Notes: generated from the sequence alone by a model not told the origin. Counted from the first letter of the stretch, positions 32,901-54,984 are shown. The stretch: DNA of 64,000 bases from Minisyncoccota bacterium (GCA_018060985.1 JAGOUZ010000001.1:21057-85056); one strand, 5' to 3'. Program-made: numbers and translations.

Positions 32901-35674
32901 CCGGTGCCAGTCGGAGGGGTCGGATATGCCGTGATGTTAGTGCGAAGTGCCTTGCCGCCGTTGTAGCCAGTAATTGGGTACTCATATGAGCGAGTATGAT
33001 TACCCCAACCACCCTGAGTCCAGCCTTGTGGTGCAGTACCCACTTGGGTCTCCATGTCCCCGTTTTGAATAAGATTTGTTGGAGTAGCTTGATTAGACAC
33101 AGTAACGGTAATTTGCGGAGCAGTACCAGTGTTGCCTGCAATGTCGCGTGCGCGTGCAGAAATAGTGTGGGTACCATTTGTAAGAGTCGTGGTATTCCAC
33201 GCAAATTCATACGGAGCCACGGTGTCTTCGGCGCCTACATCTGTACCATCAACAACAAGCGTGACACCAGCAACGCCGCCAGAGTCCCCTGCAGTAACGG
33301 CAACGGTCGTCGTGGTGCTTACAGTGCTTCCGTTAACTGGAGAATCAATAACAAGAAGAGGCGCCGTAGTATCTACGCTATTGTCGATATGTGTAATTGA
33401 AAAGTTGTCGGTGGTGAGTGAGCCAACTGCGTAGATTTCATGCCAAACGGTGAGAGATTCTACCCCAGCTGGAATAGTGACCGTTCTTTCAATTTTGGTT
33501 GGCGTGCCAACCGCAGGAACAGCACCGAGGTCGAGGTACTGGTACGTACCATTAGAGAGGCCGAGCTGCGCGTAAATCGACGTAACCACCGTTGCGGTGT
33601 AGTACTCGGTGTACACATATTGCGCTCCCGGAATAACGCTTATGGGGCTGAAGTACCACTTAGCGTTTCCGTCCACGTGATAATCCATGCTGAGTTGGAG
33701 GCCCTTAGAGCCTTCAAAGCCGGTGACCGGATACGTAAAGGTAGGATTGTTGAGACCAAAGTTTCCGCGAAGCCAGTTGAGTGGGTTGCCGCCAGGACCG
33801 TCTGCAGGAATTTCAACTGACGGGTTCTGAATAAGATTTCCCTGAACACCTGAACCGTTGTCGAGGTACAGGTTGGTGCTTGCAGTGCTAATGAGGCCTG
33901 CTGAGTCGGTTACCGTGAGAATAATTTCTGTGTATACGTCTGCTGAGCTGTGGTCAGGCGCAATAAACCAAGGATTTTTTGTATTAGTAAAATCCTGCTC
34001 AATGTGAGTATGGGTGTTGTGATGGAGAATTACCTGCCAATGAAATGCTGACGCTGGAAGAGTGCCGTCTTCACTGTCTACACCTGTACCCGTAAGCTGG
34101 ATAACATCGTTCGGCGTGTAAAGTGAGCCTGATGCCGGGCTTGTAATAGATGCGGTCGGCGCCTGATTACCGGCTGTAATCGTGATCGTCTTTGATGCCG
34201 ATGCGCCATGCGCATCAGTGAGCTTCATCACAACATTGTAGGTGCCGTTGGTAGCAAATGTATGGGATGGATTTGCCGTGTTCGAGAATGATCCGTCGTC
34301 AAAATTCCACTCGTAAGTAAGCGCATCGTTGTCCGGGTCGTATGAACCGAAGCTCGTAAATGACACCTGGAGCGGCGTAAGACCAGAAGTCGGATTACCG
34401 GAGATCTCAACAATCGGACGACGGTTACCAGTCGTGTGGGTGATGCGGTTCAACTCGCCCGTGTAAATAGAAAGGTAGTACACATTACCATCGGGACCAG
34501 TCGTTATATCCACCGGACCATCAGGGTTGTCCATAAAGTCATGCACGGAAACAAAGTTGCCGTTTTGGTCGAGCACTATGCGCTTGATCCAGTTCTGAGC
34601 GTAGTCACCAAAAAACAGGCTTGTGTCGTATGTGTCTGGATACGCATCGTTGCTTGGGAATGCACCTGCAGTTACTGAGCCCGCGCCAAACTGGTTGTGC
34701 GGATAGTCGTAGAGCGGAGTCGTGTTAGACGAGGTACAGCCGTGAGAGGTAAGACCGGTACCTTCCCAACATGGCCAGCCGTAGTTTGCACCAGCAACTA
34801 CTTTATTTATTTCCTCACGATTGCTCCAGCCCACATCGCCAGCAAACAAGGTGCCTGTAGTAGGATTAAAGTTAAAGCGGAATGAGTTACGTACGCCAAG
34901 GGCAAATACTTTAGAGCGGTTTGAGTTCGTACCATCATAAAATGGGTTTGCATCTTCTGCAGGACCATTTGTTGGTGCAGTGCCGTCACGGTCAATGCGG
35001 AGCACCTTGCCTGCAAGTGAATTTAGATCCTGTGCGCGGAGCGAACGTGGGTCCGCATAGTCAAAGTTTGCGCCGTCGCCCAAGGTTGCGTAGAGCATGC
35101 CATCTGGTCCAAAGCGAAGACCTCCAACACTGTGACTTGGAGAGTCCGAAGGAATGCAGTCTGCAGTAACTGGATAGTCCTCGCAAGACGGTGTTGCTGC
35201 ATTACCGCCAACGGTACCAACAAGGATCACCTTGCTTGACTCAAGGGCTGTATCTCCTACTACGGTAACGCGCACGATGCGGCCTGTCTTTTCGCCGCCG
35301 ACGTCAGTACCTGGGGTGTTTTCAAATGTGTATGACAAATAGAGATACCCTGTTTCAGAAAAGTTCGGATCAGCAGCAATGCCAAGAAGGCCGCGGTCGC
35401 CGAAGGTGTTGATGTCAGAAAGCCCTATAACTGGCGTCGGAAGCAGTACGCCGTTTTTAACTACCCGAACGGTGCCGCCTTTTTCTGCAATAAAGATGCG
35501 GCCGTCGTTGGCAAAGGTCATCGCGGTAGGAATAGTCAAACCCCCTACGACGGTCTCTGTCTCAAAGCCCGGCTCACTTATAGCAGCCTGTGCTACGTTA
35601 GAAGGCAAAAGGCCCGTTATGATAACGAGTGAGAAGAACGTTCCGGTGACGAATTTTTGAATAGAAGTGTTCAT
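29960..35674 (-). CDS. giant multidomain surface protein (1904 aa): signal peptide, PQQ-dependent sugar dehydrogenase-like beta-propeller, PKD, 5x CBM4_9-like modules alternating with 4x Ig-like domains, C-terminal polysaccharide deacetylase (NodB) domain split by a CBM insertion
   Basis: uninterrupted 5.7-kb ORF; propeller motifs; PKD (TYEWNFDDGS); recurring CBM starts such as NLIQNGDMETQVGTAPQGWTQGGWG, each with a GDAKWYF-type motif; NodB motifs TFDDG ... HTKTH ... YPYG ... LxH with about 170 aa inserted between MT1 and MT2. Confidence 0.85.
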   Translation of the reverse strand: MNTSIQKFVTGTFFSLVIITGLLPSNVAQAAISEPGFETETVVGGLTIPTAMTFANDGRIFIAEKGGTVRVVKNGVLLPTPVIGLSDINTFGDRGLLGIAADPNFSETGYLYLSYTFENTPGTDVGGEKTGRIVRVTVVGDTALESSKVILVGTVGGNAATPSCEDYPVTADCIPSDSPSHSVGGLRFGPDGMLYATLGDGANFDYADPRSLRAQDLNSLAGKVLRIDRDGTAPTNGPAEDANPFYDGTNSNRSKVFALGVRNSFRFNFNPTTGTLFAGDVGWSNREEINKVVAGANYGWPCWEGTGLTSHGCTSSNTTPLYDYPHNQFGAGSVTAGAFPSNDAYPDTYDTSLFFGDYAQNWIKRIVLDQNGNFVSVHDFMDNPDGPVDITTGPDGNVYYLSIYTGELNRITHTTGNRRPIVEISGNPTSGLTPLQVSFTSFGSYDPDNDALTYEWNFDDGSFSNTANPSHTFATNGTYNVVMKLTDAHGASASKTITITAGNQAPTASITSPASGSLYTPNDVIQLTGTGVDSEDGTLPASAFHWQVILHHNTHTHIEQDFTNTKNPWFIAPDHSSADVYTEIILTVTDSAGLISTASTNLYLDNGSGVQGNLIQNPSVEIPADGPGGNPLNWLRGNFGLNNPTFTYPVTGFEGSKGLQLSMDYHVDGNAKWYFSPISVIPGAQYVYTEYYTATVVTSIYAQLGLSNGTYQYLDLGAVPAVGTPTKIERTVTIPAGVESLTVWHEIYAVGSLTTDNFSITHIDNSVDTTAPLLVIDSPVNGSTVSTTTTVAVTAGDSGGVAGVTLVVDGTDVGAEDTVAPYEFAWNTTTLTNGTHTISARARDIAGNTGTAPQITVTVSNQATPTNLIQNGDMETQVGTAPQGWTQGGWGNHTRSYEYPITGYNGGKALRTNITAYPTPPTGTGDAKWAFTKIAVTPGTQYTYSDHYRSNTISDIIGQYTLADGSFHYFGLVKEIQPSTTWNTVSHTFTPPANATHVTFFHLISAVGYIEIDDAQMYVSGSGTPSETNTPIVEITNPLAGQTIHGTVGITASSTDDTAVTYIFYAVDGIPVTGQIHDAPYLYNFDTTTVGNGSHTIKATTHDPSGNNSTHTITVNVDNSVTPPTNSNLIVNPSLESAAVSGDPTSWLRGGWGTNNRAFTYPVAGPTSAKSARVEITSYTNGDAKWYFAEVPVTGGKTYSFDHVYRSNTTTEVLARYTLTGGATQYQFLGNAPASATWSQNAYSITAPLNAVSLTVFHVVHSVGFLEVDDFVLADPTATADTEAPTVSIASPAEGATLVGTTTVSVTAADNVGVTGVTLLLDGTPIGVVDTAAPYDFTWDTKTVANGSHALSARAEDHAGNITPSATVNVEVNNQVSVSNLIPNASLETAGTGGNPQNWARSAWGTNTPVFTYPVAGVDGAKGARIELTSYTNGDAKWYFTDAPVTAGKTYTLRHKYKSSVSTNLTVRYTKTDGSVVYIGLGDPAASAEWVADAHVLVIPTGVVSMTLFHSMNKVGWLEVDDYALTAGLEGTFNSGMISFTFDDGWYSHYSQAYPILNSGNLKGVFYITSNEVLQGASDELIQNPSLETFGTGSNPLNWSRGNWGTNTTVFTYPAEGVNGVSAAQIEMSSYTNGDAKWFFADVPIVEGHVYTISDQYKTTAPSETLMRYTMSDGTTQYVFLAWLPSTDGTWQTLTRTVTPPVGAISMTMFHSLAAVGSLTVDNYSLKTEQTFMSQSQVLEMEANGHEIGGHTKTHAHLPLLTQEEKIDEIVNSRTDILAMGVDSVTTIAYPYGEYDQDVQNVTRNGGYIAARGVERGYNTKTTDKYALKIQQINTTTTLEDVQGWVEQAMADKTWLILMFHQIDTDLSTDPLTATPAFLQTTVNYIKTVPINVITVQEGVASMN
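30424..33817 (-). repeat. five diverged tandem module repeats (about 600-770 bp period) inside the giant gene
   Basis: nucleotide motif ccactt(a/t)gc(g/a)tcgccgtt recurs at about 30761, 31361, 32117, 32887, 33656 (encodes GDAKW(Y/A)F). Confidence 0.6.
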
Positions 35675-40372: not shown

Positions 40373-40447
40373 TCCGCGGTAGCTCAATGGTAGAGCAGCT
40401 CCCTGTTAAGGAGTTGGTTGTAGGTTCGAGTCCTACCCGCGGAGCCA
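40373..40447 (+). tRNA. tRNA-Asn (GTT), CCA encoded
   Basis: acceptor TCCGCGG/CCGCGGA, D-arm AGCTCAATGGTAGAGC, anticodon loop CTGTTAA, T-arm GTAGGTTCGAGTCCTAC; TATAAT at about 40350. Confidence 0.9.
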
Positions 40448-42016
40448 GTTGGGATTAGCGTCGCCAAAAGCGACGCTTTCCCGTTTAGGAGAGCCACCTT
40501 TAGGAGGTTCGAACCGGTCGTTTTTTCGTCTTACCGAATTTGAGACGAGAATCATCGGCAAAAGCGCAATATCGGTGTCAATGCTGATTATTTTGTCTTT
40601 CAGGAGGAGGTTCGAACCGAGGGCGGATAAAAAGACCTTTCGGGCATGCTGGCCCCGTTCGGTGAAGGCTTCTCTGGCGTCGCTTGCGAACGTGAGCACC
40701 TTGTCGGCCGTCTGCAGCCAACTGTCCACCCGGGCGTCGGTGTCATTCAAAAGTTCGTGGAGTTTTGCTTTCTCCTGATTTATCTCCGACTTCTTTCGTG
40801 CAAATTCTTCTTCGCTTATTTCTCCCGAAGCTCGCATGTCGATGAGCGCGTCGAGCTTCTTTACGCATGCCTCGTAGTTCTGTTGCTGGTTGGCAAGAAT
40901 CGCATTGCGGTCAGCGGCCTCCCGACCATTCTCGTTCTGCAGCCACTTCATTGCCCACTCGTGGAAATCCTCTGGTGGCTTGACCCGGCCAAGAGTATCC
41001 TCGATCTGTTTGTCCAGCTCCTTCACCTCGATGCATTTCTGCTTGCAGGGACCTTTGCGTTTCGTGCAGTGGTAATAAATATATCGGTGGATGTTGCCGT
41101 TCTTATTCCTCTTGGTCTTGTGCTCGGCCGTGACCATGCATCCGCACTCTCCACAGCGGATCATGCCCGTGTAGGCAAAGCTGTGCTCCTCGGGCTTTGG
41201 CTTGCTGCCACGGCCTAGAAGCGCCTGCATGCGGTCGTACTCCTCGCGTGTGATCATTGGCTCGTGCTTGCCCTTGTGCCAGTTGCCCGAGCCTTGCGGC
41301 CACTCGAACCAGCCGTAGTAGAAGGGATTGTAGAGCACGCGGTAGAAACCGCTTCGCGCGAGCTTCTTTAAGCCCCACTGGTTTACTGCGATCTCATGCA
41401 CCCTCGGCGTTGTGTATGTGCCGCTGAGGAGCATGTCGAACATTTTTCGGATGATCGGAAACATCTTCGGGTCTTTGCGTATCGTCTTGAATCCTTTCAT
41501 TTTGTCCGGCGTGTTCATGTAACCGATTGGAGCCGGGCCTGGATGCCAGCCCATCTCTACTTTGCGCCGGAGGCCGCGCTTTACGTCGACGCCTTTGTTG
41601 TCGTTCTCCAATTTCGCCTGGCTGCAGAGGAGGTTGAGAAGGAATTTGTCGTTCGGCGTATTTTTGTAAGCCTGTCCGGGCGTGCGAATGTCCTGAAGCC
41701 TGTTCTGGTCCATGAGATAGACCAGATAGCCGGTGTCGACGGAATTGCGCGAGAGGCGGTTCGGGTGCCAGGCGATGATGCCTTCGGCTTCGCCCTTTTC
41801 GATGCGCTTAATCATCGCGTTGAAGATCTCGCGCCCGGGCGCTTTGGCCGAGTACGATTCTTCGAGGCGCTCCACCACATGGAGCTTCTCTCTTTTTGCG
41901 AGTGCTTCCAATTCGCTCTTTTGCGAGTCTATCGAAAGTACCTGTCTATCTTCTTGTTCGGACGATTTGCGAGCGTAGAGGAAGTACTTGTGCTTTTGCT
42001 GTACTTCCTGGTTCAT
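40433..42016 (-). CDS. large serine recombinase (resolvase/invertase N-domain + recombinase domain + zinc ribbon)
   Basis: catalytic region YARKSSEQEDRQVLSIDSQ, recombinase domain, zinc ribbon CGECGC...YYHC...C, 527 aa; 3' end overlaps tRNA-Asn 3' end. Confidence 0.85.
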   Translation of the reverse strand: MNQEVQQKHKYFLYARKSSEQEDRQVLSIDSQKSELEALAKREKLHVVERLEESYSAKAPGREIFNAMIKRIEKGEAEGIIAWHPNRLSRNSVDTGYLVYLMDQNRLQDIRTPGQAYKNTPNDKFLLNLLCSQAKLENDNKGVDVKRGLRRKVEMGWHPGPAPIGYMNTPDKMKGFKTIRKDPKMFPIIRKMFDMLLSGTYTTPRVHEIAVNQWGLKKLARSGFYRVLYNPFYYGWFEWPQGSGNWHKGKHEPMITREEYDRMQALLGRGSKPKPEEHSFAYTGMIRCGECGCMVTAEHKTKRNKNGNIHRYIYYHCTKRKGPCKQKCIEVKELDKQIEDTLGRVKPPEDFHEWAMKWLQNENGREAADRNAILANQQQNYEACVKKLDALIDMRASGEISEEEFARKKSEINQEKAKLHELLNDTDARVDSWLQTADKVLTFASDAREAFTERGQHARKVFLSALGSNLLLKDKIISIDTDIALLPMILVSNSVRRKNDRFEPPKGGSPKRESVAFGDANPNWLRG

Positions 42017-42018
42017 GG

Positions 42019-42732
42019 CTATTGTGTGAGGTTAAATTCCTTCAGCGCGTTCCTGTATAAATCGATCGTGTTGTTGTAGCTGAAGATGTATCCGTTTGAG
42101 GCGATGCCGACTTGGATGAATGGGGCGCGTTCTGCTTCTGCGCCGTTCGGCAATTCGCTTGCGTAGCCCATGTCATTCCAGGTGAAGAAGAGGTTGCTGC
42201 CCTCCGGTCGGCCGGTCTTGCTGTTGTTCTCGAAGGTAAGCGTCGACTCTACCTGTGCGAAGTTCGGATATACCTTTGCGAGGAATGCGCGGACCTGCTG
42301 CTCAAGTTCTGCGGATGTTTTTGCGTTGCCGGTGTAATCCACCTCCCGGTGGAATGCGACGACCTGGTTTGTCTTGGGGTCTACCTCGGCGTACTCGTTA
42401 TCGGTCGCGCCTCTGAATTTGAGTGCCATTTCGTCGACGAGTCCGACGCTCTTTACTTCGTTGACCTGCTGCACGATGCCGAAGTTTGCGTAGCCTCCGT
42501 AGGTCGGCTGGGCGCTAAAGTCGTATTGTGCGCCTCCGGCTGCCTCTACCGCGCTCTTAAGAGATTTCGTGGCCTGGCTTAGGTCTGTCTGGCTCACAGC
42601 CCCCTCTCTTGGGGCCATATCGCCTGAATTCGGGACCTTATGCCCGAAGAGGTAGTAACTGCCGACCGCGAGTACTGCGATGGCGACGAGTGCTATTACG
42701 CCGTTTGTTGCTGTTTTTGTCATTGTGTTCAC
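42019..42732 (-). CDS. membrane-anchored/secreted hypothetical protein (237 aa), GC-elevated
   Basis: N-terminal TM, no recognisable domain; stop abuts recombinase start. Confidence 0.5.
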   Translation of the reverse strand: MNTMTKTATNGVIALVAIAVLAVGSYYLFGHKVPNSGDMAPREGAVSQTDLSQATKSLKSAVEAAGGAQYDFSAQPTYGGYANFGIVQQVNEVKSVGLVDEMALKFRGATDNEYAEVDPKTNQVVAFHREVDYTGNAKTSAELEQQVRAFLAKVYPNFAQVESTLTFENNSKTGRPEGSNLFFTWNDMGYASELPNGAEAERAPFIQVGIASNGYIFSYNNTIDLYRNALKEFNLTQ

Positions 42733-42931
42733 TAATTTAATTGATAATCTCTACCAACCTAACACTGGTCCTACTGGTGGAAGAAGTCAAACGATCATAG
42801 TGGTTTTTCTGGTCGCCTTTTGGTCGCCTGTTGTATAACCCTTTTCCGAGGGAGAGGGCCAAATATACCCGTCGCGTCCCCGATGGCACACCGCAAACCT
42901 GTACCGATGCTGTTCGCCTCTTGTCCGGGTC

Positions 42932-43065
42932 ATTTTCCGCCCAAGTTTTACCCAAGGTTTGCCCAAGCTCTTTAGGCGATTTTCCACCCCCATTTCACCC
43001 ACACTTTGCCCACATCTGCCTGTCGATTTCCACCCCAGTTTTACCCCAATGTTACCCCAGATACC
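42932..43065. repeat. iteron-like array: about 10 degenerate direct repeats TTT(T)NCCCA(A/C) at 12-13 bp spacing, followed by an AT-rich tract (43085-43210)
   Basis: attttccgcccaag / ttttacccaagg / tttgcccaagc / ttttccaccccca / atttcacccacac / tttgcccacatc / atttccaccccag / ttttaccccaa / gttaccccag. Confidence 0.55.
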
Positions 43066-43211
43066 CGTCGTCTCCCCGAAGCCGTACCGAACCTGCTTTT
43101 TAGCCCCTTTTGAGACTTTTAACGTTGTTAATGCTGATAATTTCATAGTTATACACAGATGGTTAGAGGGTCTTAATAATTCTTTTTATTTCTAAAGTCT
43201 TAATAAGGGGT

Positions 43212-43649
43212 TCATGGTGGTCTCGGGCGAGGGACCATAGTGGTCCCTGACCGGAGACCACTATGGTCTCCGGTGCTCATAAGGTGGGGATAAATGCGGT
43301 ACTGCGTTCCGGGCCAATGGCCATGCTCCGGTGAATCCTGTTTTGTTTCGATAAGCCCGAGTGCTACAAGTCGCTTTCGGACGCGTTTGCATGTCGAGGT
43401 ACCAAAACCATACGCCTCGAATCCGCGCTCCTTGCCTTTGCGTGTATTGAAAGATTTATCTGTGTGCCAGAACCAACCGTCCCTATCCGCGAAGCGGTTG
43501 GAGAGATGACAGAGAACTATGAAAAAGTCGCGCTCTGCGTGCGATAGCGTACCGCGCAGATGGTCACTGTCGAACGCGACGTGAGGAGCAAGGAAAAAGT
43601 TCGAGTGCTTATCGCTCGATTTCCGGTTCGGCTGGTCCATACTGTTCAC
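43212..43649 (-). CDS. hypothetical protein with winged-HTH-like segment; candidate replication initiator for the adjacent iterons
   Basis: ORF next to iterons plus AT-rich region; wHTH-like STCKRVRKRLVALGLIE; 3' end carries 13-bp perfect inverted repeat. Confidence 0.4.
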   Translation of the reverse strand: MNSMDQPNRKSSDKHSNFFLAPHVAFDSDHLRGTLSHAERDFFIVLCHLSNRFADRDGWFWHTDKSFNTRKGKERGFEAYGFGTSTCKRVRKRLVALGLIETKQDSPEHGHWPGTQYRIYPHLMSTGDHSGLRSGTTMVPRPRPP

Positions 43650-43911
43650 TAAATATTTCGGCTACTTTTTCACTAACGGCTTGCTCGACCTGCAAGCCGA
43701 CCTCTGGGTTTATTGGATGAAAGATATTGATGTTCTGCCCGGCCACTTTGCGCGTCGGGTACACGAGCCGGTATCCGCCATCCTTCCTGCTGAATACGGC
43801 CACCGATCCCATCCAGAATTTTCCATCGAGCACAAACGAAACGAACCCCACCATGCCGTCCTGGGGTTTAACCGCGTAGAACTGTATTTCGCTAATGGTT
43901 GTTGAGGTCAT
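43609..43911 (-). CDS. SpoVG-family protein
   Basis: VSFVLDGKF..GSVAVFSRK..G..YRLVYPTRKV...INIFHPINPEVGLQVEQAV matches SpoVG core. Confidence 0.6.
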   Translation of the reverse strand: MTSTTISEIQFYAVKPQDGMVGFVSFVLDGKFWMGSVAVFSRKDGGYRLVYPTRKVAGQNINIFHPINPEVGLQVEQAVSEKVAEIFSEQYGPAEPEIER

Positions 43912-44086
43912 GGCTTTTCACTACTTTTTCTTTGAAGTCGTCGATGTTTGGTTCGCCCATGTAGGTGATCTTGTAGAGCTTGAAAAGATTGTTCGCACGC
44001 AAAGACGCCTCCTCGTCGGAGAGCTTCACGCCGTAGCGCTTTTCGTAGAGGTTTTTAAATTCTTGGATTGCTTCTTGGGGCAACAT
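43892..44086 (-). CDS. small hypothetical protein (64 aa)
   Basis: ORF overlapping SpoVG-like start; co-directional. Confidence 0.35.
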   Translation of the reverse strand: MLPQEAIQEFKNLYEKRYGVKLSDEEASLRANNLFKLYKITYMGEPNIDDFKEKVVKSHDLNNH

Positions 44087-44451
44087 AAAAGGCTGGCCCC
44101 TGCGCGGAGTCAGCCTTAGTTGGTCGTATCAAATGGTCGGTTCGAATCTGGGCTTAGGCCACAGAGGGATTATGGAAATGCAAAACGGGACCGCTTGCAG
44201 TGCTGTCCCGTCATTCGTACCTATCAGCTTTGGAGTTTCACTCGGACAAATCTAGTACCTATAGCGTAGCTGATTTGCCAGCATCCCGTCAAGGACTGGC
44301 TGTGGGTATGTGGCTAAACTGCCACAGGGACTGCGTTTTCAACTAATTCAAAGAATTGATTTGAATTCAAGATTTCTGTCCGGGTACTGCAATGAGATCA
44401 GGTATTCCAGCTCGTTCGTGTGCCCGGATTTGATATGGCATCCGTAGGGCG

Positions 44452-45798
44452 TTAGTGACCACTATGGTCAACGCTCGCGTTGCCGTAAAAGATATCAGGT
44501 CGCTCCTCTCCTTCAACCTCAATAATCGCCCAAGCTCCTTTGTTCATGCGAGCGAGGGCGTGGTCAACTAGCACGATGTTGCCGGGCACCTCTGGGGTAA
44601 ATTCAACAATAGTTGCGCCACCTGGTAAAACCGCAGTTGTTTGGATATTTTCATGCGGCTCAGCATCGATACCACCCTCAGCATAAACTGTGTCCCATAT
44701 CTCGCCGATCGGGTGGAATGACGAAATGAGATTCACACCACCATTTCCAACGAAAATGCGCACCCTCTCACCTGTTTTTACTTTCATGCGTGGGTGTCCG
44801 TCGGTCTCGATACGTCCGTTGAAGGTCACATAATTTGGCAAACCATCAAGGAGTGCGTTGCCGTCGAAAATAGTAAGTCCCTTCTTTCCAATCTCACCTT
44901 TGGTATAAAGCTCACCTTGCACAAGATAAAACTCTTTATCGACGGGGGGCAACCCTTCTTTTGGTTCGACTAGGATAAGTCCGTACTGTCCGTGTGAGTT
45001 ATGTGTACTCACGTTTGGTGTCGCACAGTGATAAATGTAAAGGCCCGGTTGAAGCGCCTTCCATGTAAACACTTTTGTCTCACCGGGCTCGACGCGCGAA
45101 AGCGTTGAACCACCCCCCGGGCCAGTTACTGCGTGAAGGTCAATGTTGTGTGCATGGAGGCTCGACGGATGATTGGTAATTGTCATTTCGACCATGTCTC
45201 CTTCGAGCACGCGCAGCATCGGTCCGGGCACTTGCTTATTGAACGTCCAGTAGTTGAAATAGATACCTTTGGCCACTTCGGCGATCACCTCCTGTGCTGT
45301 AAGAGATATCCTAACGGTTTCGTTTGTGTCTCGGCTGATGGGCGGCGGAACATTGTTAGGGTCGGCACCTATGTCCTCGACATACTCAAAGTTTTTAAAG
45401 TTCTTTATGAACACAAGTACGTTCTTGAATGGGAGGTCGGGAAGCGCTCCACCTGGGTGATAGACATGCATGAACGCGGGCATTGCAAAATGTGGCGAGT
45501 AGGTTTTATCTGCCCACATGTATAAAAGTCCTGCAGCCATAATTACGCCAAATGTGACCGCAAGAATCTTTGAATGCACACGATATAGAAGGCGGAGTAT
45601 GAAGAAGGAGAGCGCCAAGACCACAATCGTAATGGCCCCACCCTGCATCACCGAGTAATGAATGAATGGATAGAAAGTGATCAGATTTCCAAAGCCAAAG
45701 TATGAAAACATGCTAATGAAGCCCAGGAGCACAAGGATACCGATACCAATGCCGATCTTAGTCATTGGACGACTCATCTTTCTGTATTTGAACTCCAT
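44452..45798 (-). CDS. nirK: copper-containing nitrite reductase (NirK)-family two-cupredoxin-domain protein with about 130-aa N-terminal multi-TM extension
   Basis: HNIDLHAVTGPGGG (T1/T2 Cu His motif), IYHCATPNVSTHNSHGQ (Cys/His T1 ligands; Gln at the usual axial Met position by manual alignment), 448 aa. Confidence 0.7.
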   Translation of the reverse strand: MEFKYRKMSRPMTKIGIGIGILVLLGFISMFSYFGFGNLITFYPFIHYSVMQGGAITIVVLALSFFILRLLYRVHSKILAVTFGVIMAAGLLYMWADKTYSPHFAMPAFMHVYHPGGALPDLPFKNVLVFIKNFKNFEYVEDIGADPNNVPPPISRDTNETVRISLTAQEVIAEVAKGIYFNYWTFNKQVPGPMLRVLEGDMVEMTITNHPSSLHAHNIDLHAVTGPGGGSTLSRVEPGETKVFTWKALQPGLYIYHCATPNVSTHNSHGQYGLILVEPKEGLPPVDKEFYLVQGELYTKGEIGKKGLTIFDGNALLDGLPNYVTFNGRIETDGHPRMKVKTGERVRIFVGNGGVNLISSFHPIGEIWDTVYAEGGIDAEPHENIQTTAVLPGGATIVEFTPEVPGNIVLVDHALARMNKGAWAIIEVEGEERPDIFYGNASVDHSGH

Positions 45799-45809
45799 AG
45801 TATCAATCG

Positions 45810-46172
45810 CTAATATGGGATTTTACAATCCTCAAAGCAATGTGCGCTGCGGTTAAGTGTATAAATGCGCTCCCTACCACGATCTTCGCTTTTCACCGCA
45901 TCAACTGATCGAAGGACGTTGAGGTGGTGTGTCACGGTCGGCTGCTTCAGTTTTACTTGCTCGGTAAGTTCTCCAACCGTCATGCCTTCCTTAGCTTTAC
46001 CAAGCATGCACACAAGGTTGTAGCGACTCCTGTCGCCGACTACCTTAAAGCAATCGGGGCACAGTTCCTCTTCACCGCTCGTAACCCATTCGGGGCGCGG
46101 ATATGTTTTTTCTTCTTTACCATGAACCGGTTTCGTGTTGCGACGCTTTATCCCCAACGATTTCTTATTCAT
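45810..46172 (-). CDS. ArsR/SmtB-family metalloregulator
   Basis: HTH region YNLVCMLGKAKEGMTVGELTEQVKLKQPTVTHHLNVL; Cys pairs CPDC and CFEDC; directly upstream of nirK. Confidence 0.7.
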   Translation of the reverse strand: MNKKSLGIKRRNTKPVHGKEEKTYPRPEWVTSGEEELCPDCFKVVGDRSRYNLVCMLGKAKEGMTVGELTEQVKLKQPTVTHHLNVLRSVDAVKSEDRGRERIYTLNRSAHCFEDCKIPY

Positions 46173-46232
46173 AGATGAACATCTATATGTATTATGTATA
46201 GACACTTATCAATATAACAATACCAAACCCCT

Positions 46233-47525
46233 ATGTCCAAGACACAATCCCCAGGTCTCACCGAGATAATTAAGCGCGACGGCTCAAGAGTTCCTTTTGA
46301 TAAGAAGAAGATCGTTATTGCTGTCGAGAAGGCCATGCGGGCTGCTGGGGAGTACGCGGAACATGCACCGGATATTGTCGCGGACGCGGTTGTGAAAACG
46401 CTTGCCGAAAAAAAGAAAGCGGACGACAGCTTCATTCCTTCAGTGGAGGGCGTACAAGATGAGGTCGAGCGAGTGTTGATGCTTGAAGAATTTCCTACTA
46501 CAGCAAAATCGTACATACTCTATCGCCAAGAACATGCGCTCCTACGGAAACGAGATATTTTCAAAAAGCGCATTAACCTTAAGCCGTACGAATATCCGGA
46601 ACTTTTAGAGTATGTCGATGCGATTCGTCATTCCTATTGGATACACACCGAGTTCAACTTCACGAGTGATATTCAGGACTTCAAGGTACACGTGACGCCT
46701 GCCGAGCGCACCGCAATCAAGAACGCGATGCTCGCAATCGCACAAATCGAGGTCTCGGTGAAAACATTCTGGGGGAATATCTATCATAAGCTACCGAAGC
46801 CGGAGATCGGCAATGTGGGCTACACGTTCGCGGAGAGTGAGGTACGACACCAAGATGCGTATGCCCATCTTCTTGAGATACTTGGGTTGAATCACGAGTT
46901 TGAAAAAATAAAGGAGATGCCAGCCATTCTGAAGCGTGTGAACTATCTTGAGAAGTCAATACAGCATGCGAAGAGCGACGACAATCGCGACTATGCGCAG
47001 TCCATTCTCCTTTTCTCACTCTTCGTCGAACATGTGTCGCTATTTTCGCAGTTCCTTATCATCATGGCGTTTAACAAGCATAAGAACATCTTCAAAGGAA
47101 TCTCGAATGTGATCGAGGCAACTTCAAAAGAGGAGCAAATACATGGTCTCTTCGGTATCGACATCATCAACATCATCAAACAGGAGCACCCCGAATGGTT
47201 TGACGACGCGTATAACGAAGCCATTATTGAATCGTGTCGTGAGGCGTACGAGGCGGAGAGTGCGATTGTTGATTGGATTTTCGAGGATGGCGAGCTTGAA
47301 CATATTCCCTCTGCGGTTGTGAAGGAGTTCATTAAAAACCGCTTTAACAACTCACTCTCTTCCATTGGTCTGCCGCGCATCTTTCCGACCGATGCAAAAC
47401 TGCTCGATAAAACCGAATGGTTCGACGATGAAGTTATCGCAACCAAGCATGGCGATTTCTTCGTGAAGCGCTCCATCAACTACAACAAACGCAGCAAGAG
47501 TATTACTGAGGATGATCTTTTTTAA
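46233..47525 (+). CDS. nrdB: class I ribonucleotide reductase beta subunit with N-terminal ATP-cone
   Basis: ATP-cone (IIKRDGSRVPFDKKKI...AKSYILYRQEHA) fused to ferritin-like R2 (AESEVRHQDAY, EEQIHG) with C-terminal EDDLF tail. Confidence 0.8.
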   Translation: MSKTQSPGLTEIIKRDGSRVPFDKKKIVIAVEKAMRAAGEYAEHAPDIVADAVVKTLAEKKKADDSFIPSVEGVQDEVERVLMLEEFPTTAKSYILYRQEHALLRKRDIFKKRINLKPYEYPELLEYVDAIRHSYWIHTEFNFTSDIQDFKVHVTPAERTAIKNAMLAIAQIEVSVKTFWGNIYHKLPKPEIGNVGYTFAESEVRHQDAYAHLLEILGLNHEFEKIKEMPAILKRVNYLEKSIQHAKSDDNRDYAQSILLFSLFVEHVSLFSQFLIIMAFNKHKNIFKGISNVIEATSKEEQIHGLFGIDIINIIKQEHPEWFDDAYNEAIIESCREAYEAESAIVDWIFEDGELEHIPSAVVKEFIKNRFNNSLSSIGLPRIFPTDAKLLDKTEWFDDEVIATKHGDFFVKRSINYNKRSKSITEDDLF

Positions 47526-47533
47526 TTCAACAT

Positions 47534-49204
47534 ATGTACTGGCTCAATGAAAACAGTAGGACGTTTCTCGCTAAAGGATACCTTCGTACCGGAGACAGCC
47601 CCGAAGCTCGCATCAGATTTATCGCTAACCGAGCCCAAGAAATACTTGGCATCGAAGGATTCGCCGACAAGTTTTACGAGTACATGTCACGCGGCTACTA
47701 CTCGCTTGCAACACCGGTGTGGGCGAACTTTGGTCTGCGCAAAGGTCTCCCGATCAGTTGCTTCGGCTCTTACATCGGCGACACCATGGGAGACATACTC
47801 TTTACACAAGCCGAGGCGGGAATGATGAGTAAGTTTGGTGGCGGCACATCCGGCTATTTTGGTGCTCTGCGTGGACGCGGCGCACCAATTACTGACAATG
47901 GTGTTTCGTCTGGCTCCGTGCATTTCATGCGTCTCTTTGAGAGCGTCGTGAATGTCGTATCACAAGGAGCAACACGGCGTGGGCACTTCTCCCCCTATCT
48001 TCCCATTGATCACCTGGATATCGAAGAGTTCCTCGAGATTGGCACCGAAGGAAATCCTATTCAAGAACTCACGCACGCAGTATGTGTAAGCGATGAATGG
48101 ATGAAGCAGATGATCGCAGGTGATGCGGCGAAGCGTGCAGTCTGGGCTAAGGTGCTGCAACGCCGTTCGCAGATGGGCTACCCGTACATATTCTTTACCG
48201 ATACCGTAAATAACAACACGGTCGATGTGTACAAAGATAAAGGGCTTCGCATCCACGCGAGCAATCTATGCAGCGAAATCGCCCTGCCCGCAGGTGCGGA
48301 ATGGTCATTCGTGTGCGATCTCTCGTCGCTCAACCTCCTTCACTTCGAGTTGTGGAAGGACACGGATGCGGTTGAGACGCTCGTGTATTTCCTTGATGCG
48401 GTCATGACCGACTTTATCGGTAAGCTCGAAGAAATGCGCGACTCGGAGTCGAGAGAACACAGACTGGCGTTTCAGTTTATGGAGCGAGCATACAACTTTG
48501 CCGTGGCGAACCGCGCACTTGGCGTTGGCGTACTCGGTTGGCACTCGCTCTTGCAGAGCAAGATGCTTTCGTTTGAGAGCATGGAAGCAGCAAAGCTCAA
48601 TGTTCAAATCTTCAAGACGATCAAAGAGCGCGCCTATGCGGCATCCGCAGAGCTCGCAAACCTGTACGGCGAGCCAGAGGTTCTTAAAGGATATGGTCGC
48701 CGCAATACCACGCTCATGGCGATTGCTCCGACGACATCGTCAGCGTTCATTCTCGGGCAAGTTTCGCAGAGCATCGAGCCGGTATGGTCCAACTGCTACG
48801 TGAAAGACATCGACAAAATGAAAGTGACGATCAAAAATCCATTTCTTGAAAAGCTGCTCGAAGAGAAAGGAAAAAATGACAAAGAGACATGGCACAGTGT
48901 CCGCGATAATGACGGCTCGGTACAGCATCTTCCGTTCCTGACGCAAGAAGAAAAGGATGTTTTTAAGACGTTCGCTGAGATCGACCAGTACGCTGTCGTC
49001 GGACAGGCAGCGGTACGGCAGCTGTATATCGACCAGAGTCAGTCACTCAACCTCATGATCAATCCCAAGACTCCAACCAAAGATGTGAACGCGCTATACA
49101 TCGAAGCATGGAAGCAGGGCGTGAAGTCGCTTTATTATCAACACAGCATGAACGCAGCACAGACTCTCAACAGGAAGAAGCTCTGCGTTAATTGCGAAGC
49201 CTAA
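47534..49204 (+). CDS. nrdA: class I ribonucleotide reductase alpha subunit lacking ATP-cone
   Basis: active-site NLCSEI, C-terminal Cys pair (CVNCEA), 556 aa, no N-terminal cone. Confidence 0.85.
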   Translation: MYWLNENSRTFLAKGYLRTGDSPEARIRFIANRAQEILGIEGFADKFYEYMSRGYYSLATPVWANFGLRKGLPISCFGSYIGDTMGDILFTQAEAGMMSKFGGGTSGYFGALRGRGAPITDNGVSSGSVHFMRLFESVVNVVSQGATRRGHFSPYLPIDHLDIEEFLEIGTEGNPIQELTHAVCVSDEWMKQMIAGDAAKRAVWAKVLQRRSQMGYPYIFFTDTVNNNTVDVYKDKGLRIHASNLCSEIALPAGAEWSFVCDLSSLNLLHFELWKDTDAVETLVYFLDAVMTDFIGKLEEMRDSESREHRLAFQFMERAYNFAVANRALGVGVLGWHSLLQSKMLSFESMEAAKLNVQIFKTIKERAYAASAELANLYGEPEVLKGYGRRNTTLMAIAPTTSSAFILGQVSQSIEPVWSNCYVKDIDKMKVTIKNPFLEKLLEEKGKNDKETWHSVRDNDGSVQHLPFLTQEEKDVFKTFAEIDQYAVVGQAAVRQLYIDQSQSLNLMINPKTPTKDVNALYIEAWKQGVKSLYYQHSMNAAQTLNRKKLCVNCEA

Positions 49205-49217
49205 TTGAAAAAGTACT

Positions 49218-49589
49218 ATGGAACTCTCAAACGAAGTTATCGATCTCCTGCTCAACGCTGACAGCAAAGCACTTGCCACGACGGGTCCAAACGGTCTCAA
49301 CGTCGTACCGGTTTCAACGATCCGCGTCGTTGATGGAAAGATTTTGCTTATGAACTACTTCTTTAGGAAAACTATCGAAAATATCGCTGTTCAACCCCAA
49401 GTGTCGCTCGTAGGATGGAAGGGTTTCGATGGGTACCAAGTAAAAGGTAACGTCTTGTATGTGACTGAAGGTCCTCAGTTTGACGAAGCAAAGGCGTGGG
49501 TAGCACAAAACCTGCGTGATCGAATCGTCAAAGGACTCCTTATCCTCACGCCCGAAGCCATATACAACATTTCGCCGACCACAACATAA
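49218..49589 (+). CDS. PNPOx-like FMN-binding split-barrel protein
   Basis: 123 aa, pyridoxamine-5'-phosphate-oxidase-like pattern. Confidence 0.5.
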   Translation: MELSNEVIDLLLNADSKALATTGPNGLNVVPVSTIRVVDGKILLMNYFFRKTIENIAVQPQVSLVGWKGFDGYQVKGNVLYVTEGPQFDEAKAWVAQNLRDRIVKGLLILTPEAIYNISPTTT

Positions 49590-49595
49590 AAATTC

Positions 49596-50291
49596 ATGTT
49601 TGTCGATGTTTCCGAATATATTGTACTGGCACGGAAGCAGGAAACATGCACCACGACCACGCTTACACTCGCGAAATCGGACGGCTCTATTCCTCAGTAC
49701 CGTCCAGGGCAGTGCCTCACGGTATATTTCACCGATTTTAGTCCCACGCTCGGTAAGCAGTACAGCATATCGAGCGCGCCATGTGAACAAATGTGCGCCA
49801 TAACAGTGAAGGCGATAGGAAGATTCTCCAATCGATTGTGTTCACTAGTTCCAGGAAATCGGATACTCGCTTCCGACCCACAGGGCAACTTTTGTCCTAC
49901 ATGGGAACGTAGTATGGTTCTCCTCGCTGGCGGCATGGGTATCACTCCTTTTCGAAGCGTTATTGTCGAGGCAATGTTGCTATCTCTCAATCCACAAATA
50001 AAGCTCTTTTATAGCAACAAGCTTTCAACAGATATGCCTTTTGGAAATGAACTATATTTACTTTCCCAGCAATACTCTCCGTTTAGTATCGAGCGGTTTG
50101 TTACTAAAGAGCCAACTTCGTCTACGGAGTTAAGGTATCGTCGAATGCGTCCAGATGACATTCTCAGCATACGCGACCCTCAAATCGAATACTTAATCAG
50201 TGGCTCGCTCAACTTTGTCCTCGGACTCAAGAACGCGCTCGTAGTAGCGGGTGTGGATCGGGCAAACATATTAACCGAGTCATATTTTTGA
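49596..50291 (+). CDS. ferredoxin-NADP reductase-like oxidoreductase (FAD + NAD(P) domains)
   Basis: RxYS-type FAD motif (KQYSIS), GGMGITP NAD(P) motif. Confidence 0.6.
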   Translation: MFVDVSEYIVLARKQETCTTTTLTLAKSDGSIPQYRPGQCLTVYFTDFSPTLGKQYSISSAPCEQMCAITVKAIGRFSNRLCSLVPGNRILASDPQGNFCPTWERSMVLLAGGMGITPFRSVIVEAMLLSLNPQIKLFYSNKLSTDMPFGNELYLLSQQYSPFSIERFVTKEPTSSTELRYRRMRPDDILSIRDPQIEYLISGSLNFVLGLKNALVVAGVDRANILTESYF

Positions 50292-50603
50292 CAGCACGAA
50301 TACGTATGTATTTATTTGCTAGCGAGCGCGAAGGAAGATAATTAAAATAGTGGCGGAGTATCCTGACGGCAGCATTCATCTCTTAGGAGGATCATCCCCG
50401 CTGCGGATGTACTTTCTCCATCCACCGCATGGTTTCCTCGTCGAACGGCTCCTCGTTCCGGAGGACTTTGACGGCTGCGTCCATTTCGTAGGAGTGCCAA
50501 CCGTTCTGAATGACGGTTCGAAGTTCTCGCGCTGCTCGGAGCATGATAACGACAGACCCTGCCTTGTGCAGGGTTTCGTCGTATCACGAGCACTCGCGAG
50601 CGT

Positions 50604-50697
50604 AGGGCTCGAACCGCAGGCACCCAAAAATAAGGAATCCTATGACTATATTTTTGGGGTGTTCCGACCGAAGGGAGGGGCGAGCCCTACCCGCGGA
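50604..50697. repeat. nested imperfect palindrome at the island boundary, containing the attR-like copy of the tRNA-Asn 3' end
   Basis: outer arms gcgtagggctcg / cgagccctac; inner arms cacccaaaaata / tatttttggggtg; right arm equals tRNA 3'-end repeat 50679-50697. Confidence 0.45.
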
Positions 50698-50773
50698 GCA
50701 AATTTTGACGGATATAATATATTGTGTTATATTCTTTTTGAGTAGTTCCCGCCCAATGTAAAGGAGAACGGCA

Positions 50774-51004
50774 ATGCCGCCAGAATATTCCATTCCGCTC
50801 ATCGTCTTGGGAATTTGGCTGTGGTGCCTCGGTGCGGCAGCCAGCATGTGGTTTGAACCCACCTTCATCAAGAAGGATCGGTTCATGTGGTTTCTGTCAT
50901 TTTTCGTTTGGTGGCTCGTTCTGCCCTATCAGTTATGGGGCATGCGCCACTTCGACATCTACCGTTACCTTTGGAACGAATCATGGATAAAGGATAACGG
51001 TTGA
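50774..51004 (+). CDS. small membrane protein (76 aa, Trp-rich)
   Basis: AAGGAG RBS before ATG; two TM helices; terminator downstream (51039-51073). Confidence 0.45.
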   Translation: MPPEYSIPLIVLGIWLWCLGAAASMWFEPTFIKKDRFMWFLSFFVWWLVLPYQLWGMRHFDIYRYLWNESWIKDNG

Positions 51005-54447: not shown

Positions 54448-54552
54448 ATTGCCGCGCCCGATCGAGATTGTCTCGACATCCAAGCCGCCCCTTCCACCGG
54501 GCGGCTTCTTCTTTTGCCACAGACTCTTTGCATGGTATGCTCTTTACTTATG

Positions 54553-54984
54553 TCAAAACGCGGGTCGAAATATCAGGTGGGCGATTTTAAGCTCCAGGTT
54601 AAGCGGTCAAAGACCGGCAAAGGCCTTTTTGCTAATACCGCTATACCCAGGGGCGCCTGTATCATCGAGTACACCGGCCGTGTCGTGAGCGAAGCGAAGC
54701 AGGCACGCATGTCGGGTAAATATCTTTTCGAGGTAAGTAAAAAAGTCACTATCGACGGCAACATCCCCTCCAACAAAGCGCGTTATATAAACCACTCCTG
54801 CGCCCCCAACTGCGAGGCCGATGGACCTAGCGGCAAAGTATTTATTCTTGCATTGCGGAACATCAAACCTGGCGAAGAACTGACCTACGACTACGGCGAA
54901 GAATATTTTGACGAGCACATTAAGCCAAAAGGCTGCCGCTGCCCCAAGTGCACGGCTAAGCGCTCCGCTAAAAACCGAACCTAA
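54553..54984 (+). CDS. SET-domain protein (putative lysine methyltransferase) with post-SET Cys cluster
   Basis: GKGLFA...IIEYTGRVV, RYINHSCAPN, ELTYDYG, CRCPKC. Confidence 0.8.
   Translation, partial: SKRGSKYQVGDFKLQVKRSKTGKGLFANTAIPRGACIIEYTGRVVSEAKQARMSGKYLFEVSKKVTIDGNIPSNKARYINHSCAPNCEADGPSGKVFILALRNIKPGEELTYDYGEEYFDEHIKPKGCRCPKCTAKRSAKNRT

Follow-up and report, generated by a model that had tools for sequence, protein, structure and literature searches.

We analysed a 64,000-nt stretch of DNA from a Minisyncoccota bacterium (GCA_018060985.1 JAGOUZ010000001.1:21057-85056), referred to here as the window, in which a gene for a large serine recombinase (LSR) runs into the 3' end of a convergent tRNA-Asn gene and is followed by genes for a copper-containing nitrite reductase (nirK) and a ribonucleotide reductase (RNR). 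A preliminary description, made from the sequence alone, had read this region as an integrated LSR element at tRNA-Asn with nirK and RNR as cargo. An empty site and both junctions bear that reading out, and we put at roughly 85% the probability that 40446-50542 is an LSR integrative element at tRNA-Asn with its attachment site attP inside its own integrase gene, the gene being split on integration, and with a slot for cargo. As read from the sequences, the evidence comprises both junctions, an empty site, an in-frame split of the gene, a pattern repeated across the family and cargo located between attL and attR. Related loci are referred to by L numbers where they need to be told apart.

The tRNA-Asn junctions and the divided integrase gene

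The following features lie at the two ends of the proposed element.

40373..40447, + strand: tRNA-Asn(GTT), the proposed integration target, intact (ARAGORN; Rfam RF00005, 73.3 bits)
40433..42016, - strand: large serine recombinase in its integrated form, 527 aa, made up of 524 codons of its own and L-R-G-stop read from the tRNA T-stem (Pfam; phrog_95)
40441..40445, + strand: attL core GGAGC, comprising the last two acceptor bases, the discriminator and C74 (junction alignment of ~25 loci, L147 comparison, attP/attB reconstruction)
40446..40490, + strand: P' arm of attL (CA NN TGGGATT...), conserved family-wide (29 distinct junctions)
40458..40487, + strand (tRNA direction): 7-bp hairpin with a T-run, 11 nt past CCA, inside the antisense integrase coding region
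50392..50541, - strand: C-terminal tail detached from the integrase, 49 codons (LRAARELRTV...PQRG) with a stop (in-frame fusion; relatives)
50538..50542, + strand: attR core GGAGC, with tail-coding sequence leftward as the P arm and the host B' arm from 50543 (L147 and the junctions of L028, L160, L013 and L004)
50543..50709, + strand: host DNA that natively follows tRNA-Asn, outside the element, with a terminator-like hairpin and then a long hairpin containing a 19-mer discussed below (L147)

The limits of the insertion were set with L147 (Ga0163150_10004581), a related metagenome contig retrieved from 73 metagenome loci that were found with the 3' half of the window tRNA-Asn as query. Since def-fmt lies upstream of the tRNA in both, L147 is a syntenic relative of the window. 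Its tRNA-Asn is identical, and the tRNA end ...CCGCGGAGC is followed at once by ATGATAACGACAGACCCTGCC..., the sequence found in the window from 50543 onward (the junction in L147 reads tRNA ...CCGCGGAGC joined to ATGATAACGACAG); identity to the window downstream of the tRNA is 86.9% over 175 nt. Because L147 joins the tRNA directly to the counterpart of 50543-50709, the insertion is delimited as 40446-50542, a segment of 10,097 bp bounded by GGAGC pentamers at 40441-40445 and 50538-50542. The integrase and six cargo genes (nirK, ArsR, NrdB/NrdA, PNPOx-like and FNR-like) gave no tblastn match across the 13.4-kb L147 locus, which reaches 9.2 kb past the tRNA downstream. An empty tRNA-Asn site had been sought in relatives, and L147 provides one. 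Look-ups of the exact flanking-gene proteins returned the same arrangement only, and one Logan contig ends in the tRNA and is uninformative.

Joining 50542 to 40446 produced an uninterrupted open reading frame (ORF) of 573 aa, in which W524 is fused in frame to LRAARELRTVIQNGWHSYEMDAAVKVLRNEEPFDEETMRWMEKVHPQRG and a stop codon. The same join rebuilds attP (...GCTGCTCGGAGC joined to CAGTTGGGATT...), positioned at codons W524-L525-R526 of the rebuilt gene. The predicted attP reads ...GCTGCTCGGAGCCAGTTGGGATT... (junction form CGAAGTTCTCGCGCTGCTCGGAGC joined to CAGTTGGGATTAGCGTCGCC) and the predicted attB ...CCGCGGAGCATGATAACG... (junction form GAGTCCTACCCGCGGAGC joined to ATGATAACGACAGACCCTGCC). 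On this reconstruction attP is inside the LSR gene, and integration removes the last 49 codons of the enzyme.

As the preliminary description had noted, the recombinase gene abuts tRNA-Asn and overlaps its 3' end; the overlap is 15 nt, and the stop codon is inside the tRNA. Three Pfam domains scored above their cut-offs: the N-terminal resolvase-type catalytic domain (PF00239, 70.8 bits vs 23.3, residues 12-156), Recombinase (PF07508, 25.9 vs 21.1) and Zn_ribbon_recom (PF13408, 33.7 vs 25.3). The PHROGs match was the integrase family phrog_95. An AlphaFold2 model of the rebuilt 573-aa protein (mean predicted local distance difference test score, pLDDT, 78.7; long helices at 351-452, in keeping with the coiled coil inserted into the zinc ribbon of LSRs) had the SPbeta, Bxb1, PhiC31 and A118 integrases as its top fold matches, with TP901-1 and TnpX as matches to the catalytic domain. 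The enzyme is a bona fide LSR.

The division of the gene was also apparent among relatives. In five loci (the window, L004, L013, L028 and L160), the end of the element away from the integrase carries a tail of the window type. The attR form ...GCTCGGAGC is followed by host sequence in L028 (a host terminator) and L160 (a spacer, then a second tRNA-Asn copy), and in L013 and L004 the ...GCTCGGAGC junction leads into another truncated integrase. About 23 of the 120 closest homologues continue into a genuine, unsplit tail that has a conserved motif (such as LRALDDVRT, LRLCDNIRT or LALLRDFRT) immediately behind the junction, and P0241 carries the window-type tail unsplit. Most other homologues of the 120 end in residues read from a tRNA, for example LRG-stop, RGWDSNPRP or RGQDSNLQP. 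The ratio of non-synonymous to synonymous substitution (dN/dS) was 0.035-0.09 for the 524-codon body and 0.2-0.33 for the tail in comparison with relatives; both integrase body and tail are under purifying selection. Since a single ORF under strong purifying selection retains the catalytic and DNA-binding domains, the integrated form of the gene is probably not a dead pseudogene. A 50-aa ORF at 50395-50547 had been considered as the relic of a second integrase, prompted by the fusion of its counterpart to a different LSR in L013, until L147 and the in-frame fusion identified it as the tail of the element itself; tandem insertion made the L013 ORF a chimera. On the minus strand, the host junction creates an ATG at 50544-50542 that starts the detached tail, the same ATG occurs in L028, and a weak promoter-like match (TGCACA-16-TATCAT, 50542-50570, minus strand) ends at this ATG. 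The tail might be separately expressed as a 50-aa peptide.

The junction alignments locate the exchange at the very end of the tRNA. In every junction aligned (~25 loci), attL had the form tRNA...GAGCCA followed by NN TGGGATT(A/T)GC, and the 29 distinct P' arm junction sequences aligned without gaps, CA and TGGGAT being invariant. Across the ~25 loci, changes in the 3' half of the acceptor stem go with changes in the host 5' half. As these host-specific acceptor 3' strands match their own 5' strands, the tRNA 3' end is host DNA and crossover occurs at or after GAGC; the final two bases of the encoded CCA are element-derived. Judged from this alignment, the crossover is within GAGC, at the tRNA CCA end rather than in the tRNA body. 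The core shared by attP and attB is GAGC to CGGAGC only (4-6 bp), and the arms are otherwise unrelated. A core this short is what a serine integrase would be expected to use. This removed a tension raised in the preliminary description, where a long direct repeat of the tRNA end had seemed more typical of tyrosine integrases. No P arm mirroring P' (AATCCCA, CCCA NN TGG) was found in the region, and a conserved junction at the stop-codon side of the tail was looked for and not found. Between 42016 and 50395 there was no internal att-like junction or tail motif, which gives no support to a simple tandem composite.

The hairpin natively behind the tRNA (50544-50586) is moved away on integration, and the hairpin at 40458-40487 may accordingly be read as its replacement, a tRNA terminator supplied by the element. 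Over the 29 distinct junctions, 99% of cells were paired, and compensatory changes were present in 3 of the 7 pairs (41 cells). Its covariation score was 0.548, compared with 0.170 for shuffled alignments (none of 500 reached it) and 0.009-0.115 when the partner positions were slid. Little was gained from scans for consensus promoters and terminators. At L004 15866-16133, tRNA-Asn is interrupted by a group I intron (RF00028, 73.3 bits vs a cut-off of 50), and group I introns in tRNA-Asn are also visible by eye in L018, L132 and L161; because of these interruptions, ARAGORN misses some Patescibacteria tRNA-Asn genes.

The preliminary description had placed the right boundary of the element elsewhere, at a 19-bp copy of the tRNA 3' end near 50.69 kb taken as attR, in the manner of tyrosine-integrase islands. 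The repeat itself is real: the tRNA end CGAGTCCTACCCGCGGAGC (40427-40445) recurs with 18/19 identical positions, at 50681-50699 rather than at 50679-50697, and the chance expectation is 0.01 matches at up to 3 mismatches. It is also inside a palindrome, as had been described, in this case a long hairpin whose segment gave an RNA fold z of -6.5. However, the 19-mer is 139 nt to the right of the 50542 junction, and the structured host DNA around it recurs in L147, where the 19-mer and the 139 nt before it directly follow the tRNA of an uninterrupted site. No comparable repeat of the own tRNA end occurred in 20 related loci searched, the best other forward match having 5 mismatches in 19; the tRNA 3' halves are host-derived; and no Phage_integrase match indicating a tyrosine integrase was obtained among ten element proteins (40433-50291, the 64-aa ORF lying outside the Pfam scan). 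An element ending at the 19-mer is on this evidence scarcely tenable. The limits proposed for the element were nevertheless off by only ~20 bp at the left end and ~155 bp at the right end.

The long imperfect hairpin in 50543-50709 consists of two inverted stretches resembling tRNA 3' ends and is conserved in L147, with at least 1 compensatory change by eye. No Rfam family matched 50543-50709, and a sensitive Rfam scan of 50250-50850 gave nothing credible. Many relatives have an inverted T-arm copy (gtaggactcgaa) 60-90 nt past tRNA-Asn, and in L104 a comparable pseudo-3'-end lies 3.6 kb downstream. The structure could have a function or be the scar of an old att site; the data are consistent with the suggestion that the repeat survives from an older event.

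Taken as a mechanism, the LSR would recombine attP of the circular element with attB at the very 3' terminus of tRNA-Asn, the two sharing only the core GAGC/GGAGC. The tRNA would be left intact, with the element supplying the co-varying hairpin and T-run just behind it. Integration would separate the last 49 codons from the rest by 10 kb, placing them at the opposite end of the element and leaving a gene that ends in L-R-G-stop from the tRNA T-stem, and excision would rebuild the 573-aa gene. The tail may alter integrase activity or directionality. Tentatively, and with the odds somewhat against the proposal as a whole, attP within the gene could act as a location sensor in a large clade of Patescibacteria serine integrases: the episomal enzyme would be full-length with a conserved helical tail, the integrated enzyme would be tail-less and end in residues read from the tRNA, and the difference would set directionality or activity, with tail swaps in tandem copies giving chimeras and with core-metabolism (RNR, nirK) and defence cargo being spread among these reduced genomes.

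A conserved core and its occurrence across Patescibacteria

Besides the integrase, the left part of the insertion contains a module shared with relatives. This conserved core comprises the LSR, a 237-aa protein, 11-bp repeats, a weak Rep-like protein, a SpoVG-like protein and a 64-aa protein.

42019..42732, - strand: 237-aa protein, conserved beside the integrase (comparison with relatives)
42810..43060, no strand: iteron-like region with three short arrays of 11-bp period and TTTNCCC repeats (Tandem Repeats Finder; direct-repeat family D1)
43212..43649, - strand: 145-aa protein, a weak relative of phage replication initiators (phrog_270, E 8.3e-6; phrog_428, E 3.1e-4)
43609..43911, - strand: SpoVG-like protein, core-conserved (PF04026, 31.9 bits vs cut-off 29.6)
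43892..44086, - strand: 64-aa core protein, 88-95% identical in close relatives
44087..44305, no strand: conserved non-coding end of the core with several hairpins (blastn limits; alignment with long invariant runs)

The 237-aa protein was 68-82% identical in 12 loci (within L004-L011 and L013-L018) and 43% identical in L033, with no match in L012 or L019-L031; it had no accepted family match in Pfam, NCBIfam or PHROGs. The 145-aa protein is kept in the core of all relatives. The short 11-bp-period arrays reported in the preliminary description were found at 42810-43060; each of the three has 2.2-2.6 copies, and the count of TTTNCCC across the whole window is at chance level. The circular form may replicate from this iteron/Rep-like module, with the repeats as a putative origin. 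The 64-aa protein, which had no family match in NCBIfam or PHROGs, is by its position a candidate regulator or directionality factor. Among the window, L008, L011 and L016, the ~220 nt at 44087-44305, upstream of the 64-aa gene, are more conserved than the adjacent genes, too invariant for a covariation test, and are a candidate regulatory RNA, operator or origin. Capsid, terminase, relaxase and conjugation genes were absent from the core proteins (Pfam, NCBIfam, PHROGs), and a scan of viral contigs with the integrase returned one distant, unrelated match.

Relatives of the integrase number in the thousands, and those with a named source are nearly all from Patescibacteria, where the element family is widespread. 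A recurrent module was found in different hosts, consisting of 64-66-aa, SpoVG-like and 142-145-aa proteins, repeats and the integrase, with a 234-237-aa protein in closer relatives. In the module loci the integrase ORF ends inside a convergent tRNA-Asn, or inside tRNA-Gln in L017. More broadly, a convergent tRNA was present at the LSR 3' end in 57/80 genome loci with relatives (41-91% identity), mostly tRNA-Asn (26) or tRNA-Gln (21) with a few tRNA-Trp, -Lys, -Ser, -Arg, -Ile, -Glu and -Gly. Beyond the equivalent of ~44305 the contents differ. Type I restriction-modification with Fic is common to L007, L015, L017 and L023, which represent different hosts and both tRNA-Asn and tRNA-Gln, and other cargo included other restriction-modification systems and copper resistance with an IS3 element. 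As judged from these loci, elements of this family do carry cargo, in a variable slot between core and tail.

Tandem arrays of integrase elements at one tRNA were observed in L004, L013, L021 and L170-L172. Such arrays yield chimeric ORFs, with the body of one integrase and the tail of another, and also leave truncated relics, such as a 129-136-aa C-terminal fragment beside defence-like genes. In the flanks of the window, a 1904-aa secreted protein with repeated domains is encoded at 29960-35674, 5 kb upstream of the tRNA. A SET-domain protein is encoded at 54514-54984, on the 3' side of the element, and at 15121-15534 in L011, on the 5' side of tRNA-Asn; these opposite sides point to rearrangements around this tRNA.

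The nirK-RNR block as cargo

The remainder of the insertion is occupied by six genes, and the gene content given in the preliminary description (SpoVG-like, nirK, ArsR and RNR) agrees with the Pfam and NCBIfam matches.

44452..45798, - strand: NirK, copper-containing nitrite reductase with an N-terminal membrane extension (TIGR02376, 315.4 bits vs 296.3)
45810..46205, - strand: ArsR/SmtB-family regulator (PF01022, PF12840, NF033788)
46233..47525, + strand: NrdB, RNR small subunit with an N-terminal ATP-cone (PF03477, PF00268)
47534..49204, + strand: NrdA, RNR large subunit without ATP-cone (TIGR02510, 771.7 bits vs 602)
49218-49589, + strand: PNPOx-like FMN protein (PF01243)
49596-50291, + strand: FNR-like NAD-binding reductase (PF00175)

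The PNPOx-like and FNR-like genes accompany the RNR genes in relatives, and NrdA is 73-90% identical across very many Patescibacteria. Since attL and attR enclose the block and its flanks are contiguous in the empty site, it is, by position, cargo. Composition was compared along the window, with host windows of 6.09 kb as the tetranucleotide reference.

40446-44305: core, 52.6% GC
40427-44100: left end stretch of the preliminary description, 52.7% GC
50300-50600: right end stretch of the preliminary description, 52.8% GC
50395-50542: tail, 148 bp, 58.8% GC
44306-50394: cargo, 48.2% GC
1-40372: left host flank, 50.5% GC (right flank, 49.4%)

The 55-58% GC previously attributed to the two end stretches was not reproduced, only the tail reaching 58.8%, and the middle is not host-like either: the tetranucleotide distance of the cargo from the host was 0.259, in comparison to 0.141 +/- 0.027 for host windows (maximum 0.217), making the usage of the block the most atypical in the window.

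Several observations weigh against our reading of the region as an integrative element with this cargo. The same six genes, in the same order, are chromosomal in L093 and L094, with no LSR or tRNA-Asn within 10 kb, and L173 has 5/6 of them in a non-element context, without the FNR-like gene. In L011, where the same integrase core is at tRNA-Asn with the block alongside and a cytochrome cd1-like gene in addition, the block adjoins the core in the opposite orientation, its far end being beyond the DNA examined, and block identity to the window is 71.7% nt, the element core being less diverged (about 80-85% nt). As the block appears host-like in these relatives and is more diverged than the core, it looks captured from a host. 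L147 is a different species, and its flanks diverge from the window past 50709. The Rep and iteron assignments are weak, and a directionality factor was not found, position alone making the 64-aa and SpoVG-like proteins candidates. The tail was modelled at low confidence (pLDDT 51-63) as three helices behind a disordered linker (489-525), giving no mechanistic insight. No excised circle or attP read was seen. Finally, RNR is normally essential; if this is the sole copy, loss of the element would be lethal, and the copy may be fixed in place.

The host-like divergence of the block, its non-element settings in L093, L094 and L173, and the end of the window's homology to other elements at ~44305 would all fit a mobile element consisting of the core only (40446 to ~44305), with nirK and RNR as ordinary neighbouring host genes. 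We think this very doubtful, as the detached tail and the native post-tRNA host sequence lie past the block (50395-50709), no attR-like junction was found near 44.3 kb or elsewhere inside, and the block has the atypical tetranucleotide usage described above. More credible, though still unlikely in our estimation, is a fossil or composite with genuine att ends, to which the RNR block was added later by secondary rearrangement (for example recombination between two copies) and which is now immobile through an essential gene. Tandem and decayed arrays are common in the family (L004, L013, L021, L170), synonymous divergence (dS) between the window and L004 is 0.56 in the body and 0.16 in the tail, suggesting a mosaic history, and RNR blocks occur near other LSRs and tRNAs in L174/L175 and L093. 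However, integrase, tail and the two att cores are all intact, integrase and tail remain under the selection described above, and no internal junction scar was found. Our preferred reading is still of an integrative element with captured cargo, and this copy may still be able to excise.

The cluster nirK-ArsR-NrdB(ATP-cone)-NrdA-PNPOx-FNR recurs in this group of Patescibacteria, with all six genes in L093, L094 and L174/L175, in differing surroundings. In L174/L175 the six genes are between tRNA-Ser and a different, 439-aa serine recombinase, and in L093 the block is 1.4 kb from tRNA-Gln; L091 has five of the genes, without nirK. The cluster may itself move as a unit.

Relation to known integration systems

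The locus defines attL, attR, attP and attB exactly for serine integrases of a large, uncharacterised clade that are aimed at tRNA 3' ends, a type of target not associated with this enzyme family. Serine integrases serve genome engineering, so a new and well-defined set of sites is directly testable. The split gene suggests that a switch between episomal and integrated states is built into the element. The family also represents a concrete vehicle in Patescibacteria for defence, metal-resistance, nucleotide and nitrogen-metabolism genes, and a normally essential RNR operon appears able to lie between functional-looking att sites. Our literature search found no description, for serine integrases, of a tRNA 3' terminus as target or of attP within the integrase gene, nor of these Patescibacteria elements, an absence that is not proof of novelty, and a large survey of serine integrases did not mention tRNA targets.

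The elements resemble those of SPbeta SprA, PhiC31, Bxb1, A118 and SCCmec Ccr in the domains and fold of the enzyme, the very short shared core and the location of the integrase gene at one end, and are unlike them in that the target here is the 3' terminus of a tRNA gene. With tyrosine-integrase (Islander) islands they share insertion at a tRNA that is left functional, accessory cargo and tandem accretion at one tRNA; unlike those islands, they lack a tyrosine integrase, attR is not a displaced tRNA fragment, and the crossover is at the CCA end.

In the tyrosine-integrase systems of myxophage Mx8 (IntP/IntX) and mycobacteriophage BPs, attP is inside a phage gene, and integration alters the C-terminus of the product and hence its activity or stability; in the integration-dependent immunity of BPs the truncated gene is the repressor. 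The present element shares with Mx8 and BPs an attP inside a gene and, as predicted from the sequence, a C-terminus changed by integration. To our knowledge, an integrase gene spanning its own attP has so far been known in this general form only from archaeal SSV-type tyrosine integrases, and an attP that, on our reconstruction, is inside a serine integrase ORF is unusual. The closest parallel described is in the 'suicidal' SSV-type tyrosine integrases of archaea (SSV1, pT26-2), in which the gene is partitioned on integration into a tRNA and hybrids form (PMC7253208). As in that type, the recombination site is within the integrase ORF, the gene is split to the element ends and hybrids occur (the chimeric ORFs in L004 and L013); unlike it, the enzyme is a serine recombinase, the host is bacterial and only the last 49 of 573 codons are removed.

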